Assembly (NCBI GenBank): GCA_951406725.2
Contig: OX597823.1
Span: 81,964,001-82,028,000 of the forward strand
Origin: Octopus vulgaris
Taxonomy: Eukaryota
DNA: 64,000 nucleotides
Reading direction: 5' to 3'
Part shown: piece by piece, positions 11,779 through 57,425 of the stretch
How positions within the stretch are numbered: the stretch's first letter is position 1
How the letters are laid out: each line of letters starts with the position of its first letter
Program-made: the position numbers and the translations under genes
The notes under the pieces: model-generated
Told to the model about the DNA's origin: nothing
The model's database searches: none
Seen by the model: the letters and a program-made list of their open reading frames with translations, nothing else

Positions 11779-12291
11779 TAATTAGTACGCAGAGGCTCCT
11801 TCGAGTGAATGAACTAAATAGAGTTACCTCCCTTGATTTCTTTTTTTTCTTTCAATTCTATCTAGAGGGAAATTTTGTTTGTTGATTGCATGAATAATCT
11901 CTGTTAAACGAAGCTTTTTTCATTTCAAACGAAGGATGCTCTCGACTCTGCAGTGTGTGTATTTAGTTCGCAGAACATTCTTTTATAGGTCTTTTGTTTC
12001 CCCTCTCAGATATATTGTTGATATGCTTAGTCAGGCGTCCACAGTCTTCCCGTCGTTTCGCTCTCTCTTGCTTTCTCTTGCTCTCTCTCTCTCTCTCTCT
12101 CATCTGTCTCTCTTTCTATATATATTTATGTAGGAGTGGCTGTGTGGTAAGTAGCTTGCTTACCAACCACATGGTTCCGGATTCAGTCCCACTGCGTGGC
12201 AGGTTGGGCAAGTTTCTTCTGCTATAGCCTCGGGCCAAAAAAAGCTTTGTGAGTGGATTTGGTAGACAGAAACTGAAAGAAGTCCGTCGTA

Positions 12292-12707: not shown

Positions 12708-12721
12708 AATATATATATATA

Positions 12722-13118
12722 TCTTTATATATAAAAGTGAGGTTGTGTGCTGTCTGTCTCCTACGATTTAGATTCCTAACTACTCCCACATTTTGCGGTG
12801 CAGTTTAACCAAAAGCGGGTATCTTATAGTCGCGATTCATATCGAGCCCTTCTGAGTATTAGCTCGCGTCTACGATGAGTCTACGATTTAAAAAAGAATT
12901 TACCATCAATTTTTCCCATTTTTAATGTATTTTTGGCATATATAAGGGAAGTAACTCTCTAAAAATTTACTATTAAATCTCAGAACGTAAAAAGCTACAG
13001 TAACACCCCGCCCTTTGTGGTTAGCCATATTGACATGGCTATTATACTTTACATCTCTAAAAATGCTTATATAGTTATTTCCCTTACAAATCCGAGCAAC
13101 GCCGGGCGATACTGCTAG
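12722..13118 (+). mobile_element. Non-autonomous Helitron
   Basis: 5' TC after A; 3' hairpin ccgagcaacgccggg then CTAG followed by T; same ends as 38900-39410. Confidence 0.88.
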
Positions 13119-13224
<106 letters not shown>

Positions 13225-13261
13225 TATGTATATATATCTACACACACACACACATATATAT

Positions 13262-13843
13262 AACTGCAGTCTGAGAATAACCGAGTTAGTAAACGTTTTT
13301 ATCTTCATTTCACTAAATTTATCCAGCTTCTGTGTTCCTAGCACATATTTCGCCTTAATGTACTGATATATGGAAAATATATGGCTTGTGTTGGAAATAC
13401 CAGCGATTATAATTATTTTTATTTTATCGCAATTTGATTTGTTTACATATTTCTCGATAAATTTTGAGCGCTAGACGATATACCAGAAATCCCTAGTTTT
13501 GTCGGGACGTTCGGAGTCTGCGCAGTGATCTGATTAGTTAGAGAGAGTAAATCATTAGAAGCACATGCTTCTGGTGAGTTAGGATCTCAGAAAAACAGGG
13601 CTCTCACTGACGAATTCTCCCTGGGCAAATAAATTATCTTTATTGCTGAAAAGAAAGAAACTGCAGTCTGAGAATAACCGAGTTAGTAAACGTTTTTATC
13701 TTCATTTCACTAAATTTATCCAGCTTCTGTGTTCCTAGCACATATTTCGCCTTAATGTACTGATATATGGAAAATATATGGCTTGTGTTGGAAATACCAG
13801 CGATTATAATTATTTTTATTTTATCGCAATTTGATTTGTTTAC

Positions 13844-13847
<4 letters not shown>
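13262..13847 (+). mobile_element. Retrozyme-like 1.5-mer of a 397-bp unit
   Basis: 189-bp direct repeats 13262-13450 and 13659-13847 read as identical; hammerhead motif spans the junction; (TA)n on both sides. Confidence 0.75.
13602..13673 (+). ncRNA. Type I hammerhead ribozyme motif
   Basis: Stem I TCTCA/TGAGA; core CTGACGA; stem II TTCT/AGAA with an A.A first pair and an inner hairpin; GAAA; palindromic ACTGCAGT stem III; GTC cleavage after 13668. Confidence 0.7.
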
Positions 13848-13874
<27 letters not shown>

Positions 13875-13879
13875 TATAT

Positions 13880-14006
<127 letters not shown>

Positions 14007-14574
14007 CTTGTGTATCTGTCCCCCCAACATCGCTTGACAACCGATGCTGGTGTGTTTACGTCCCTGTAACTTAGCGGTTCGGCAAAAAAGACCGATAGAA
14101 AAATACTAGGCTTCCAAAGAATAAGTCCTGTATATATAAGTATATATATATATATACGTACACACACACTTATTAAAGCTGCAAAATCTTCACAAATTGT
14201 AACTCAGCGTTTCACGTTCCCGATGGTCGGTCTCATTGCTTGGACAAGTGACTTTTATGTGAGCCTCTGGCTATACACAAAGATTTAACTTGTTACAAGC
14301 AAGGTAACGTAGTAAACTGAATGCCAACCGTTTCATGTAATAACATGGTAAAATGAATGCTAACACATTCAGAAATAAAACATCACCGCGGAACTGATGA
14401 GGTTGCTACGTTGAATTCAATTCATTCTTCCAAGGAAAAAAAAATTAGATACCTACAATCGACGAACATAATATGCAGAGAGTGTTCATTCATATTTAAT
14501 GCTATTTGACCCATCTGTATATATGATTTAACGTCACAGCTATTCGATATAAGTGAATTGAATGTGCGTTATCT

Positions 14575-18522: not shown

Positions 18523-19865
18523 CTGAAATTTCATAACATTGAACTGCATGTTATTTTTGTTAGCCCATTTGTATATTTCATTCAAGTCTTTCTGCAGTTT
18601 CATGATGTCCTATGGGTTCCTAGCTGCCTGCGATACTTTTGTGTCGTCAGATTGGGCTGACTGTTCCGCGGAGGGCATGTCTGAGAGGGCTAGCACAAAT
18701 TGTAGTGGCCTCAGTACAGTTCCCTGTGGAACTCCGCTGAGAATTGGTGTCTCTTCAGAGTGAGCATCATTGGCTACAACTGTCTGACTCCTTCCCTTCA
18801 GAAAATCATGTAGCCACTCTCCCAATTTCCCCGTAATACCAAGGTTTCGCAGCTTGTAACATATCATGCCATGATCAACCTTGTCGAAGGCCTTGACAAA
18901 GTCGAGGTATATCACGTCTACAGCTGACTGGTTTAGCTGTTGCTTCAATACCCAGTCAAAGTGCTGTAGCAACTGTGTGAGGCTGCTCCTCCCTGGATGG
19001 AAGCCATGTTACGTTTTTGTGAGAAGGTTGTTTTCTTCTAGGAACGTGATCAGCCTTTCTCTGATAATGCGTTCCATTGTCTTGCTAACATGTGAGGTCA
19101 GAGAGATGGGCCTGTAGTTTTTAGCATCTGTTCTGCTCCCTCTTTTATGGACAGGACATATTATACCCTCTTTTAGCATGTTGGGAAGTTTACCACATGC
19201 AAGGAAACTTTGAAAGAGTATCTGCAGTGGCTTTGCAAGAGCCTTTTTACATGTCTTTAAGAGAACAGCCGGGAGTCCATCTGGGCCTGTTGAGAGTTTG
19301 ATCTCATCTCATCAATGGCCGATATTACATCTTCTATTATGTTGATTTAATCGATAGTTGCTTCTTTTCCGAGAGGTTTCGTTACATTGAAAAACTCCCC
19401 AGGCTTGTTTATTTGCATATTTTCCAGTGGAGAAGTGAAAACACTTTGAAATTGTTTATTTAGCGTTTCACTTATCTTTCCCTGGTTTGCCGTTAGTGAG
19501 CCGTTTTTACCAAATAGCGGCCCTATCTTATAGCGTACTGAGGCAGACTCCTTTGCCAACGTGCAGAAGGCTTTAGGATTTTTAAAAATCGACTGCCCAG
19601 GTTTCTCTTTCTTCTCTTTGTTTGTCATGAGAGATTCTGAGTTTATTTTCTATTTCAAAAAGTTCCTCTGTCAGGTGGGATTTCACACTGTCATTAAGGT
19701 GTTTGCTTAAACGATTCAAGATCTTTATTCTCCGACGCATTAGTATTCTCCTGTTTCGGAGAATGATGCTTTTGTTTGTATTGGCTCTCTTCTCTGGGAC
19801 GTATTTAATGCATATGGCTCGCATTATCAACATGAATTTATTGAGTTTCATATCTATGTCTTTCA
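18523..19865 (-). mobile_element. Decayed CR1/L2-group LINE ORF2 (reverse transcriptase) fragment
   Basis: VDVIYLDFVKAFDKVDH, SGVPQGTVLRPL, SDDTK, LQKDLNEIYKWA..NNMQFN; upstream GPDG, YRPISLT and NPKAF; stops and frameshifts. Confidence 0.9.
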
Positions 19866-22055: not shown

Positions 22056-22111
<56 letters not shown>

Positions 22112-22282
22112 TATACGACTAGCTTATTTCAGTTTCCGCCTACCAAATCCACTCACAAAGCTTTGGTCAGCCCAAAGCTATAGTAGAATGCACTTGCCCT
22201 AAGTGCCACACAGTGGGATTGAACCCGGAAACATATGGTTGGGAAGCAAGCTTATTACCACACAATTTTCTTTTATATTTAT

Positions 22283-22317
<35 letters not shown>

Positions 22318-22459
22318 CTTCTTTCAGTTTCCGCCTACCAAATCCACTCACAAAGCTTTGGTTGGCCCAAGCTATAGTAGAACACACCTGCCCTAAGTGC
22401 TACACAGTGGGATTGAACCTGAAACCATGTGGTTGGGAAGCAAGCTTCTTACCACACAA
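21950..22459 (-). mobile_element. SINE family A with tandemly duplicated head segment (about 22118-22263 and 22315-22459)
   Basis: Two near-identical actagctt..tttcagtttccgcctacc..accacacaa blocks, each preceded by (CA)n. Confidence 0.8.
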
Positions 22460-22956
22460 CCTTTCTTTTATATATATGTACACACACATACAGCCATTGG
22501 AGTTGGTTGCAATCCACCTATTCGACTGAGTTCATAGTGCAGTACTTTCTCTTATATTTAGTTGATCATATCGAAATCAGTACTTGTTTTTTTTTTTTAA
22601 ATATTGTATTATTCCATTAATATTCTCTGTTCGAACTGATATTTTACAAGATATTAAGCAGTGTTAAACGTAAATACACACACGCACTCGTATAACTATC
22701 AAATTAAGAGTTATCTCCCTTACATTTGTATACTTTTCTATATCGGTCAGGGGATTAAAAGTGCTGTTCAATAGTTAAAATGAGACACGCCTTTGATAAT
22801 TATTTGGCCTACATATATTTGTATCTTATAGATAAGATAATGGAAGTCACTCTATTGTATTTTATTCAGGATGTCATCTTTGTTTGGCACTAGTTTCATT
22901 AATAGTTTGTGTCAATTAGCTTGGTTGCAAAGTTGAGCCAAATACCTTGCAGCGTT

Positions 22957-38848: not shown

Positions 38849-38899
38849 GACACTCACACACAGACACACACACATACATGTAAATACTATATATAAACA

Positions 38900-39410
38900 C
38901 TAGCAGTATCGCCCGGCGTTGCTCGGGTTTGTAAGGGAAATAACTATATAAGTATTTTTAGAGAGTTACTTCCCTTATAGATGCCAATTCGGGCTTTCTT
39001 AGCCATTTCTGTTTTGGTGTCTTCAAGCCATGAAGTCGTTGTTCTAAAAGAACGCTGGTCTCCTTGACAACGCTTTACGACGTTGATTTCCTTACACTCC
39101 CTTCCCCACAGCTTCAGGAGGGAGGGAAGAAGTTTGAGAAGCAAAGAGGTGCAGGTGTGACCATGGACGCCAACTCCGCCGCCATCGACACACGAAAAAT
39201 TATACATTAAAATGGAATAAAAAATGATGTTAAACTATTTTTAAAATCGTAGACTCATCGTAGACGCGCGCTAATACTCAGACGGACTCGATATGAATCA
39301 CGACTATAAGATACCCGAATTTGGTTAAACTGCACCGCAAAATGTGGGAGTAGTTAGGAATCTAAATCGAAGGGGACAGATACTCACACAACTACAGTTT
39401 TATATAGATA
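38900..39410 (-). mobile_element. Non-autonomous Helitron, same ends as 12722-13118 with a different interior
   Basis: CTAGcagtatcgcccggcgttgctcggg at the left end; ...ttttatatataGA at the right end. Confidence 0.88.
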
Positions 39411-39443
39411 GATATGAGCGCCTATATGAATTTATATATATGT

Positions 39444-42992: not shown

Positions 42993-43475
42993 AATGCTAT
43001 GATGCTATGATGCTATGGTGTTTCCATTATTTTATCCAGCCCTGTATAGTAATAATAGTAATAACAATAATAATCCTTGGATGGAATTTATAAATATTTG
43101 AATGCATCTCGACGCGCGTTTCCACAAATCACATGTTACTTACGATTATAGTCCATATTTCTTGGATGATTACAGTACAGTCCATAGTGTTCATGGACAT
43201 CGGGTGGATCATATTCATGCGTTCATTTCCTCAGGAGATATGGCATTAAGGTTGGAAGCAGCGAATGCATAACTGAAGGTTGTTTATCAATTTTGACCAG
43301 TGAAAAGGTTGATTGGGGTATGTGGTCAGTTCTGTGTGTATTTGATGGGGGAAGGGGAGGAGAAAGTACTGAAAAGAGAGAAAGGAATTGTGATTATGAA
43401 GGAAGTTACACTTATTTTGATATTTGAGTATGCAGATATCAGGATTGGTTTGGAAAGATGTTTGACAAGTCGCTG

Positions 43476-44590
43476 TCAGAGAGAAGCAATGTCACCAACA
43501 TTGTGCAGCAAGCAGAGGAATGGCTGATGAATAGATCAGGACTTCCAGGAAAGTTCAGGGCATGGTTCTACCAGCACGAATTGCTCCCAAGACTCATTTG
43601 GTTGTTGACGCTGTATGATATTCTGATGACAAGTGTGGAAAGGGTGGAGAGGAAGATAAATAAATACTTCCGAAGATGGCTAGGTGTTCCCCCAAGCTTC
43701 ATTTCAATAGGTCTGTACATAAAATCGGGACTGCTACAACTTCCCCTGTCATCTGTAGTGGAGAATTTAAAGACCAGCTGTGTAGATTTTGTGGAGAAAG
43801 GGGCACTCTGGCTCACATCTTGGCTGGGTGCAGAATAGCACTTTCTCAGGGCAGATATAAATGACATCATGATAGGGTGCTTGCAACACTTGCTCACATC
43901 CTGGAGGAGGAAGGATGCAAGAAACATCATCACCAAGGGAAGGCAACTGCAGCAATTAAGTTCGTGAAAGAGGGAGAGAGACCAGTAAAGTAAACAATAC
44001 ATAGCTTGCTGCAAGGATCTTAACCATGGGATATGAAGAGGACTTAGGGGAGAGACTGAAGTTTCCCCAGGTTGTCCATACAACCCTGAAGCCAGATGTG
44101 GTCCGGTGGTCTGAAAAGGCCAAGAAAATTATCGTAATTGAACTAAGTCTTGTGGGAAGAGGGGGTGTGATGAGGCCCGTGAATGGAAGCGTACCAGATA
44201 TGAGAGCCTTCTGCAAGATTGCCGGGAGAAGGGATGGCAGGTATGGCTTTCCCAGTCGAGGTTGGCTGTAGGGGATTCCCCCGCCCAATCGCCAATTACA
44301 ATGAGAATTAGAATTACAGGAATTAGAATGAGAGGTAAGGAGCGAAGAGTGGTTACGTGCAGGATGGGAGAAGTAGCAGAAAGAACTTCTTGTTGGCTTT
44401 GAAGCAAGAGAGAAGAGTTAAGCTGGGACCCAGGAAGAGATGAGGAGCAGTGACTTGGCCACCCCCGCTGACCCACCAACGAGAGGGTGTTACGGTTCAA
44501 GGTCGAAACACCCGATGAACGTTGGATACCGTCTGACGATATCAGTTCCTTTTGGCCAAGGCCACATTCACTTTGGTGAGTGGATAAAAC
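43476..44590 (+). mobile_element. Hero-like (RLE-type) non-LTR retrotransposon 3' fragment
   Basis: SGLPGKFRAWFYQHELLPRLIW..RRWLGVP; CRFC..GTLAHILAGC..SQGRY..HDRVL (CCHC plus RHD-type motif); LKPDVV..IVIEL; PVEVGCRGFP; 3' UTR containing cgaaacacccgatga. Confidence 0.85.
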
Positions 44591-54464: not shown

Positions 54465-57425
54465 CTAGCTGACGTACCCGGTAATTCCCGGAAAAGCTGG
54501 GTTTATCCCTTGGTTCCGTTCTCATAATTGTTTCGTTAATCCAATAAAAAACAATACAAAGTATGTAGCCCTCAAAACGGTTTTTGTGCATTTACAGAGA
54601 ATGCACCGAACTGTCTTACATATAATCTTGTTTTTAGGAAATCCCAATAAGTTATGAATACCCAAATCGTGAAGTCAGTTATGTAATAATAAAAATTAGT
54701 TACCCGATAGTAAGAATTCAAATAATTTTGAAAAGGCGTTCGCAGAGAATATTAACCTTAGGGGCGCTAGTGTTGAAATAGGTTTACAATGAATGTAGAA
54801 GCAGTTTGACGTTTACTTTTAAAGTAGACATACAAATAAATTTGCATCTAAAATAACATGCAGATTATCACTAGATTTACAACACTTACAAATGTTACGG
54901 TTAAATAATAAATACCTGATGATTTGGAGAATTTTATTAAGTTTCTAGAGCTTCTTGATAAACCTCATTTTTGGTCTTTCCTTGTGGGGCATAAATAAAC
55001 AAATGATGAAGATTGGCGACTCTTGAGCATCCCACATAAAGTTGGTCATGGGAGAAAACTGGTTCCGCAAGATTCAGAACTACCACATCCGCAGACTGAC
55101 CCTGGGCCTTGTTAAGGCTCATTGCAAAGCTCAGTTTCAACGGGAATTGCTGGCACTTGTACTGGGAAGGCATATCCGAGGGAATAAGTGGAATTCTAGG
55201 AATGAATACAGGCTCACCGCTTGCTTTACCAGTCAAAATTATTGTCTCCAAGACTGATAGCATCACCTTCTTTATTATAAGTTGTGTGTCATTGCAAAGC
55301 TTTGGTGGATAGAGGTTTCGAAGCAGCATAATTGGAGCCCCAATCTTGAGGTGCAAGTTGTGAGATGAGATGTCGGGTTGAGCTAAAATGGCACGGTTTT
55401 TCAGCCAGTTGTGGTCTGTAAACCGATTCCTCAGGTTAGGTAACACCTTATTCATTAGGTCCTTTAAATCAGATACTACATGTCCAAAAAGCAAGCTTAC
55501 CCGGCCATCCGTCTCGCCAACCGAAGTGCCATTTCCTTCGTCCAACAGTTGCTTTGAAAAAGTTCTGTCTGCATTATCACCACTGGGCTGCAGTCTCATG
55601 CTGGTTGTGAGTCTCATCTTTTGCACACTGCTCAATAGGTAGGACAACTTTAAGCTGGCGTTTACCTCATCAACTCTTGTCCTCTCTGTAAGCAAGAGAA
55701 GGGTTTGTCTAGTTTCCTCCAAGCAACACTGTGGTACCTCCCATGAGCTTAGTGTTGTATCTCAGACCCTGAAGGGCCATGTCAAAAGCTTCAAAGGAAA
55801 CCAGATGATCAACCTGCATTCATCCAGAAGTTTGTCTTTTATAGAACCACGACTGATGTTGTAGTTTGCCTTCTCTTTCTTGGACAGGTCTAAAGCAAGT
55901 TTGAAACAAGAATGAGCTGTGTGGCCACCACTTAGAAGAGTTGTAGCTGTTCCACTTGACGCCACTGCTATGGTAATGTGTTTCATTTGGCGCAGTTTAG
56001 CCAGAAAAAGGTAGATTACAAATGTCTTGTCAGTTCCACCTGGAGCATCCAGAAAGAAAAGACCTCCTCTTTCATTTTCCATGCTCGAAATAATGGTCTT
56101 ATAAACACCCAGTTGGTCTTCTATCTGTTTGTGTTCGTTATCAGTTATATACGCCATCATTTCCTCGATGTCATAGCTGAATTCTCGCAGGTACTCAATT
56201 GTTAGATTGTTTGCTTCTTGCTCCGGTTGAAGCAGACCAAATGTGGCAATGCCTTGACCTCCCTTAGCTTGCACTCAGGTGTCCAGGTCAAGTAATGCCT
56301 CATTGTATACGGCGTTATTGAACGTGGCAATTTCCGCTAAGGTTTGCCTTGAAATCCTTTGTAGGATGTCCTTTGCCATACTGGTTTTGTGGGTCACCCA
56401 AAGCTTGAGATTTTCACCCAAGCCACATATCATCAACATGATAGAAAATAGCTGGCACAGTTGACTTGGTTCTCTGCTGACTGCTGTCTCCTCCAGTGTC
56501 CATGTTTGGCACAGGCCTCTCTGTAGGTCGTGCAGACTTCCCCATTGTGTCTTCAAAGGTCGGACAGTGTGCAGTAGTAGACGCAGAAAGAAACACTCCT
56601 GCTGGTTAGGGTGCTCAGTGTATACTCGTCCAATGGCTCCATTTCTGAAAGCTCCTTGCTTGTGTCTGTTCCATCTATTGTGTCCCAGATATAGTACACA
56701 GGAACCTCAACATACAACAGTGTACGGGTTAACAGATCACATTATCATAATTTGAAGAAAGCTGTCAGAGTAGTTTCTGGTGGTTTCAGAACTACGTTTC
56801 GAGCATAGTCTTCTGTGAAATATACACGCTGGCCATTTTCAAGATGTACAGATAAATTCACTCCTGTTGGATGCCGCTCGTAGATTACGAAGCCCTCGTT
56901 AGAGGAAATACACCTGCCCAACTTATATTGCTGAATTTCATCTGCATGCCCTTCTATTCAAGTCCCGAAACCGCCATATCTGAGCTCTCATTGATGTATT
57001 TACATACATATTTAATACTTTTTAAAGAGTTGCATGATTCAACATTAAGATAGGCCTGCAATATTTTAGACAGCAATGGGTTGTAGGGCACGATCCACCT
57101 GTAGTCAATTCCATCCCTTGACCATTAACTTTCAGCTTGATAGTGATTGGAGTGATCAAAGGAAAATGAATGAACTATTTCACTTGGCTAGGAAAATGAA
57201 TTGGTTATTTCCCTTGGCTGTTTAAATGAAAGTATATTGCTTATATATGTGGACCCCTTCTAGAGGCCCTAGACATCCAATTATAGATTTTTATTAAACT
57301 TCAATGTGCCTAGTAACAAACTGGATGTTACTTTAGCATGTTTGCAAAGTTTCACGAAAATTCGTTAACAGGTGTAGACGGCAACTTGACGCAAACAGAC
57401 ATACAAACAGACAACTTGCGTTCAT
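54465..57425 (-). mobile_element. Decayed Helitron with RepHel (post-Rep region plus Pif1 helicase) pseudo-ORF
   Basis: WIVPYNPLLS..LNVESCNSLKSIKYVCKYIN, HLENGQRVYF, FFLDAPGGTDKTF, AVASSGTATTLLSGGHTAHSCFKL, PIMLLRNLYPPKLCN, QFPLKLSFAMSLNKAQGQS, FSHDQLYVGCSRV; CTAG and hairpin at 54465-54491. Confidence 0.93.

Follow-up and report, generated by a model that had tools for sequence, protein, structure and literature searches.

A 1.48-unit insertion of an abundant 397-nt repeat with a predicted type I hammerhead, probably placed in a TA microsatellite by a Penelope-type enzyme

Retrozymes are an established class, described in coral, mussel, axolotl and many vertebrates. That Penelope-type enzymes mobilise them from circles has been proposed in print, although not demonstrated. 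According to the available text of the study on Xenopus by Li, Clavereau and Pollet (2026; 10.64898/2026.07.22.740005), the retrozymes of that genus derive from the pLTRs of Penelope elements, and eight of the nine dimers tested did not cleave; in the same portion of the article no mollusc is mentioned as a source of the genomes sampled. Our literature search returned no description of a cephalopod retrozyme; supplementary files, which lay outside the search, may list one. In Penelope elements, whether autonomous or not, partial tandems are the norm, as is truncation at the 5' end, and (TA)n targets are described (PMC8557442 and PMC3846280, in the sections available). Purified Penelope reverse transcriptase has been reported to begin synthesis on AT-rich DNA from an internal position of the RNA that lies downstream of the hammerhead; in vitro, unprocessed RNA was its main substrate and hammerhead mutants had no effect on insertion (PMC11167929, in the available part).

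The insertion described here occupies positions 13262..13847 (+) of the 64-kb window, i.e., of the whole stretch of DNA that was analysed. It measures 586 bp and, with a unit length of 397 nt, comprises 1.48 units of a non-coding repeat whose GC content is 35.8%. The initial annotation had claimed identical 189-bp direct repeats spaced by 397 bp, and an exact match at offset 397 was indeed found between 13262..13450 (+), which represents a unit truncated at its 5' side, and 13659..13847 (+), which is the same as the first repeat down to the family-rare letters 13770 G, 13790 G and 13721 C. The predicted monomer extends from cut to cut over 13272..13668 (+, 397 nt), as judged from the hammerhead geometry and from a closed 427-nt contig of run X7. 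The first repeat had been placed 10 nt before the predicted cut; base 13262 may itself belong to (TA)n, and the distance is therefore better given as 9-10 nt. Similarly, (TA)n had been noted on both sides. This holds for the right flank (13848..14003, unstranded), which constitutes the (TA)n target, whereas the left flank (13122..13261, unstranded) mixes (AC)n and (AT)n in a microsatellite behind the 3' end of a Helitron-like element. The (AT)n tract on the right side spans 13844-14003, overlapping the end of the insertion. That end, 13844..13847 (+), is the likely fixed start of reverse transcription, lies 179 nt beyond the cut and shares a 4-nt overlap, ATAT, with the target. Any target-site duplication would be masked by the surrounding microsatellite.

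The insertion had been described as free of ORFs, in agreement with our translations: the longest stop-free runs in the closed 397-nt unit are only 51 codons (+) and 75 codons (-). No coding remnant of a Penelope ORF was found in translations of the unit, and the ORF for the reverse transcriptase and GIY-YIG domains of an autonomous Penelope-like element is absent from the insert. The 64-kb window as a whole is repeat-rich animal DNA, in which the only protein remnants are those of mobile elements (Pfam matches in 3 of 112 ORFs). None of the 112 ORFs matches GIY-YIG, and the sole reverse transcriptase match sits away from the insertion. A blastn search revealed no further copy of the 397-nt unit in the window. 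A GTGAGT hexamer at 13574-13579, upstream of the hammerhead, resembles a splice donor, and no convincing acceptor was seen for it; an intron can occur in Penelope pLTRs. The suggestion of a Pol III remnant, in the form of a B-box-like sequence at about 13508, had to be abandoned: GTTCGGAGTC at 13509 matches neither the strict nor the relaxed B-box pattern, and the unit contains no GTTCRANNC, no relaxed B box on the + strand and no A box. Five runs of four or more T are present on the + strand of the unit.

Several other repeats share the window with the insertion. An element at 12720-13121, with a TC start, a hairpin and a CTAGT end, is one that we take to be a non-autonomous Helitron-like element; a second copy lies at 38899-39414 (-), and the retrozyme insertion sits in the microsatellite behind the 3' end of the first. 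Broken Pif1-type helicase frames, recognised by Pfam at 54940-56274 (-), are probably a decayed Helitron. A fragment of reverse transcriptase (PF00078) is located at 18613-19008 (-), and a LINE-like second frame, seen by eye and without a Pfam match, at 43428-43838 (+). SINE-like repeats at 12120-12290 and 14010-14130 have at least 13 and 8 further matches in the window, respectively, and a 194-bp unit is repeated 2.1 times at 22088-22492.

The sole complete type I hammerhead motif, recognised by a descriptor scan, occupies 13602..13673 (+), with the cut predicted after C13668. The claim that the repeat junction completes a type I hammerhead with a palindromic stem III was borne out, every word being found at its position, and an A·A mismatch has to be added to the description. 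Stem I pairs TCTCA at 13602-06 with TGAGA at 13669-73 over 5 bp and is followed by the core CUGACGA at 13607-13. Stem II opens with the mismatch A13614·A13656 at its base, continues with 4 bp (13615-18/13652-55) and carries a distal hairpin at 13624-47; the G10.1-C11.1 pair that closes stem II is absent, A13614 standing opposite A13656. On the 3' side are GAAA at 13657-60, ACTGCAGT at 13660 and the GUC site that precedes the predicted cut. Stem III consists of 2 bp and a UGCA loop, both contained in the palindrome ACUGCAGU. The descriptor scan of both window strands produced four hits, and a palindromic stem III is found in one of them, at 13602-13673; the three remaining hammerhead-like hits were dropped for want of stem II pairing or of the palindrome. 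A hit with a palindromic stem III never occurred among 20,000 Markov-simulated 397-mers, 0.145% of which produced some hit having a stem I of at least 5 bp. Rfam searches yielded no match to a hammerhead model at E values up to 5 or 10, and the matches that they did return, miRNA models driven by the microsatellite and two chance matches, were dismissed.

The local hammerhead fold is not better than that of shuffled sequences (z 0.15 and -0.43), and in the whole transcript the cis fold costs 12.5 kcal/mol, with a stem I probability near 0. According to the models, stem I may be extended across an internal loop. Variants of the motif are present among public contigs. C at 13656 accounts for 1.5-22% of the summed depth in three runs, and a CCGA core variant for 0.1-18% in four runs and 60% in X11. 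The latter variant, at 13605-13611, was noted in X7, X11, X2, X8 and X15, and is carried by the single X7 contig that covers the core. In X15, one loose end has C preceding GAAAC and TAAGA after the cut. In axolotl, a hammerhead whose stem III is likewise 2 bp long and whose stem II likewise begins with a mismatch shows weak cleavage on its own and cleaves well in dimeric form (PMC7229834, in the text available). Because a hammerhead with such defects cleaves as a dimer, the poor stems II and III seen here do not exclude activity.

In order to place the unit among its relatives, we used an index listing 24 runs and compared the contigs of six of them (X1, X2, X7, X8, X11 and X15) with the insertion stretch. 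This stretch or part of it is contained in 20 of the 24 listed runs, from ten studies and under four organism labels. Coverage extended to 29 of 29 bins in every one of the runs X1, X2, X7 and X11 (contig numbers of 284, 353, 2 and 62 in the four), and to 27 of 29 in every one of X1, X2, X8 and X15. Summed contig depth, which is not equivalent to copy number, ranges from ∼7,000 to 250,000 in two large DNA-type runs, with the maximum of 2.5e5 in X2; since it is so high, a single-copy unit is hard to reconcile with the contigs. The proposed search for other copies thus uncovered a high-depth family in the contigs of all six runs, with most pieces 90-100% alike. The head-to-tail joint 13847 -> 13451 is present in X1, X2 and X7 and absent in X11. 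Head-to-tail continuity was found at every phase of the unit, and no array of two or more full units was seen directly. One X7 contig of 427 nt has the same 30 bases at its start and end, and we infer a closed 397-nt cycle, either array or circle, in a run that, like X11, is only presumed to be RNA; this contig represents a different variant, with the CCGA core and 12 letters unlike the window. Judged by the features that sequence can test, the unit belongs to a very abundant non-coding family of the animal non-LTR retrozyme type, for which cleavage and circles are predicted. The initial assignment to a family of retrozyme type that carries a type I hammerhead motif is accordingly upheld by the high-copy head-to-tail contigs and by the motif itself.

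More distant relatives were also encountered. A related subfamily in all six compared runs (X1, X2, X7, X8, X11 and X15) has parts of the unit in common with the family but differs across the hammerhead region, at phases 13539-13693, and in X7 record 26 it has 158 letters that replace 153 across that region. One low-depth X15 contig joins 13655 -> 13437, 219 bases back, possibly reflecting a shorter unit. Pattern scans for relatives outside the runs gave 0 and 27 loci in viral sequences, 0 and 1 in metagenomes and 0 in prokaryote genomes; all 28 were dropped as chance matches, none of them aligning to the unit or having a stem I longer than 3 bp.

Over the length of the 189-bp repeat, the letters of the window depart from the family majority at 13691, 13721, 13770 and 13790, and both repeats share the window's letters. 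The share of summed depth taken by non-window letters is 100% at 13790, 96-100% at 13770 and 86-93% at 13721, and the window letters 13573 G and 13790 G are absent from all six runs compared. For two copies that are 2% apart, the probability of identity over 189 nt is 0.02. It follows from the shared rare letters that the differences predate the duplication, and that the insertion has either remained unchanged since or been homogenised. Therefore, it is likely that both repeats were copied from one template, with the caveat that the species or individual of the window may differ from those of the runs. The view that repeat identity reflects one event is strengthened by the family-rare letters carried in both repeats.

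Of the four near-private letters, three are A-to-G changes when read on the hammerhead strand (post hoc; transition-biased nulls give p 0.03-0.05). The G at 13393, at 13573 and at the common variant 13624 stands opposite U in predicted helices, as do 11 of 76 G overall; that at 13373 does not. Two of the A-to-G letters lie in a UAG context, which is one preferred by ADAR. Taken together, this offers a weak hint of RNA editing behind the A-to-G letters; they are explained equally well by mutation compatible with the structure, or by the window and the runs coming from different species.

The ends of family copies bear on the mode of insertion. (TA)n follows directly after phase 13450/13847 in one contig of X1 and two of X15, and was not seen at this phase among the matches listed for X2 and X8. 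Ahead of the unit, (TA)n occurs at other phases, namely 13377 (X1) and ∼13499 (a related contig of X7). No (TA)n junction coincided with the left phase of the window among the matches listed (20 loose ends; X1, X2, X7 and X11), the left junction itself, 13238-13267, having been left out of the contig comparison as repeat. Two observations speak against one single 3' end: a divergent X1 copy, represented by two contigs, exits the family at 13828, and the low-depth X15 contig joins back by 219 bases. As the window's G at 13393 and 13790 is missing from X1 and X15, the contigs with (TA)n after phase 13450 probably derive from loci other than the window's. A recurring right end combined with variable 5' junctions fits the Penelope pattern, if thinly, on three contigs from two of four runs. 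Permuted ends had been proposed as a sign of a circle, and this check gave a divided answer: the 5' junctions do vary, while the right end recurs at one phase. It is likely that the insertion into the TA microsatellite is recent and that a Penelope-type reverse transcriptase was responsible, and we hold the combination of the family and Penelope-type insertion to be highly probable.

The complete chain, in which a member of this family was inserted by a Penelope-type enzyme from a circular template, has in our estimate a probability of about 0.5, the circle being the most likely template, ahead of a linear multimer. According to this scheme, a source array would be transcribed, and in its weak hammerheads, whose stem III has 2 bp, cleavage would take place mainly in dimers formed via the ACUGCAGU palindrome. 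Dimer cleavage would release 397-nt monomers, to be closed by a host ligase. A Penelope-type endonuclease would then nick (TA)n, and the reverse transcriptase, with its start at phase 13847 (179 nt downstream of the cut), would copy 586 nt, pass the cut site twice and halt 9-10 nt past the second passage. A circle as the natural source of such base-exact crossing of the cut site is part of a published model (PMC4209133, PMC7229834 and PMC7761336, in the portions available). A cleaved linear monomer would be insufficient as a template, because two exact template jumps would be needed. The folding of the monomer circle is unremarkable: its self-pairing (-82.9 kcal/mol, z -0.67) is equalled by 23 of 100 shuffles, a comparison that lends no support to a highly self-paired circle, and in the circle ensemble the GAAAC strand is mostly sequestered and folding of the hammerhead costs 10.6 kcal/mol. 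The initial annotation took the 1.5-mer for the expected footprint of a circular-RNA retrozyme. Membership of the family and a single template stand; the shape fits a circle without being specific to it, since a linear multimer that was never cut would leave an identical footprint, which is also that of the standard Penelope partial tandem. Nor are the contigs able to separate a circle from a tandem array.

The best-surviving alternative keeps the Penelope-type insertion and dispenses with the circle: the enzyme would have copied an uncut linear multimer, the transcript of a tandem source array with homogeneous units. The biochemistry of the Penelope enzyme speaks for it, unprocessed RNA being the main substrate, reverse transcription starting internally and hammerhead mutants inserting normally (PMC11167929, in the part available), as do the poor predicted folding of the present hammerhead and the head-to-tail joints in DNA-type runs; moreover, identical units in a young array would give shared rare letters as well. 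On the other hand, described retrozymes accumulate largely as circles (PMC7229834, in its available text), and if the A-to-G letters arose by RNA editing, their presence in both repeats would point to one circular molecule. On balance, we regard the multimer as a serious but rather unlikely template.

A linear RNA could also have been copied with template jumps, leaving an ordinary Penelope partial tandem of a deleted Penelope derivative. Although partial tandems and 5' truncation are usual for Penelope (PMC8557442 and PMC3846280, in their available sections), the cut site is crossed base-exactly both times, all phases are continuous at high depth and the unit has no visible coding remnant, so that this origin appears improbable. 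Still less credible is a later local duplication of a shorter insertion, or homogenisation by gene conversion, either of which would make the identity uninformative about the copying event: the microsatellite flanks are unstable, and local amplification of retrozymes into tandem repeats is discussed in the available text of 10.64898/2026.07.22.740005, but the internal junction 13450/13451 is continuous family sequence, and a pre-existing array trimmed to exactly these ends would be required, the right one being a recurring terminus. An assembly artefact, whereby a single unit was written 1.5 times, would suit a high-copy repeat flanked by microsatellites that no listed contig spans, whose left junction was skipped as repeat and whose 13573 G and 13790 G occur in no compared run, but is very improbable, as a loop in a collapsed-family graph would be expected to put the majority letters, rather than rare ones, into both repeats.

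The left end of the insertion deserves attention, as folding, and folding only, predicts a hammerhead half-site at 13263..13276 (+), composed of the whole 8-nt palindrome, GUC and the 3' strand of stem I. In a constrained fold this half-site is a predicted long-range substrate that pairs with 13660-67 and 13602-06 and would be cut after 13271. The two palindromes pair in unconstrained folds with a probability of 0.68-1.0 per pair in four contexts, and a hammerhead directed at 13271 costs 6.5 kcal/mol, versus 12.5 for the cis site; in both the cis and the half-site forms the probability of stem I is near 0 and that of basal stem II 0.02-0.11. Two to three of the 397 unit phases would keep the palindrome this tightly, as was noticed post hoc, and no second family copy ending at the window's left phase was seen. 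According to these models, the half-site and the downstream hammerhead, with an 8-bp stem III and a 5-bp stem I, might release a 397-nt monomer from a read-through transcript. Such release demands both cuts as well as strand exchange, which counts against the model. It is unlikely that a 1.48-mer with one hammerhead is a fertile retrozyme whose A-to-G letters are edits fixed from a single circle. If it were, the 1.48-mer would be the shortest self-propagating form, and a rule demanding two complete hammerheads would undercount active copies.

Among described systems, the closest counterparts of the 397-nt unit are the retrozymes of mussel (350-390 bp) and axolotl (Rtz_353), which likewise consist of head-to-tail, non-coding units of a few hundred bp with a GC content below 50% and one type I hammerhead per unit (Cervera and de la Peña 2020, PMC7229834, in the available text); the size, composition and lack of coding capacity of the unit fall within the retrozyme range (150-450 bp, GC <50%, non-coding). 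Axolotl HHR_Amex2 also combines a 2-bp stem III and tetraloop with a stem II that is mismatched at its base, U·U there as opposed to A·A here. As far as the same source goes, the differences from its retrozymes are the long stem II with an internal loop, a circle no more self-paired than shuffles, the single complete hammerhead of the present copy and the predicted status, in our case, of cleavage and circles.

With endonuclease-bearing Penelope-like elements the copy shares the partial tandem, the (TA)n target, variable 5' ends and a hammerhead upstream of what is here a likely fixed internal start (PMC8557442, PMC3846280, PMC11167929, PMC4209133). Unlike these elements, as portrayed in the accessible portions of those papers, it has neither an ORF nor an inverted arm, and a 30-40 bp tail was not seen. 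The short palindromic helix III of type I hammerheads (PMC4209133, available part) has its equivalent in ACUGCAGU, with 2 bp and a tetraloop, whereas the copy lacks G10.1-C11.1, a pair that in this account typifies minimal Penelope hammerheads. The start of reverse transcription and the cut DNA are non-homologous in PMC11167929 (in its available part); here a 4-nt overlap is possible.

Finally, in the terms used in the available text of Li et al. 2026 (10.64898/2026.07.22.740005), the copy fits the 'monomer' class of dispersed copies. The Xenopus retrozymes of that study have a pLTR partner, and none was found for the 397-nt unit within the window ORFs. 'Active' copies are recognised there by two consecutive complete hammerheads; the present one carries one motif and a 3' half-site, which lowers its standing as an active copy, not its membership of the family. 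The locus offers a compact test case both for a circle versus an uncut multimer as template and for the sufficiency of a half-site in monomer release.
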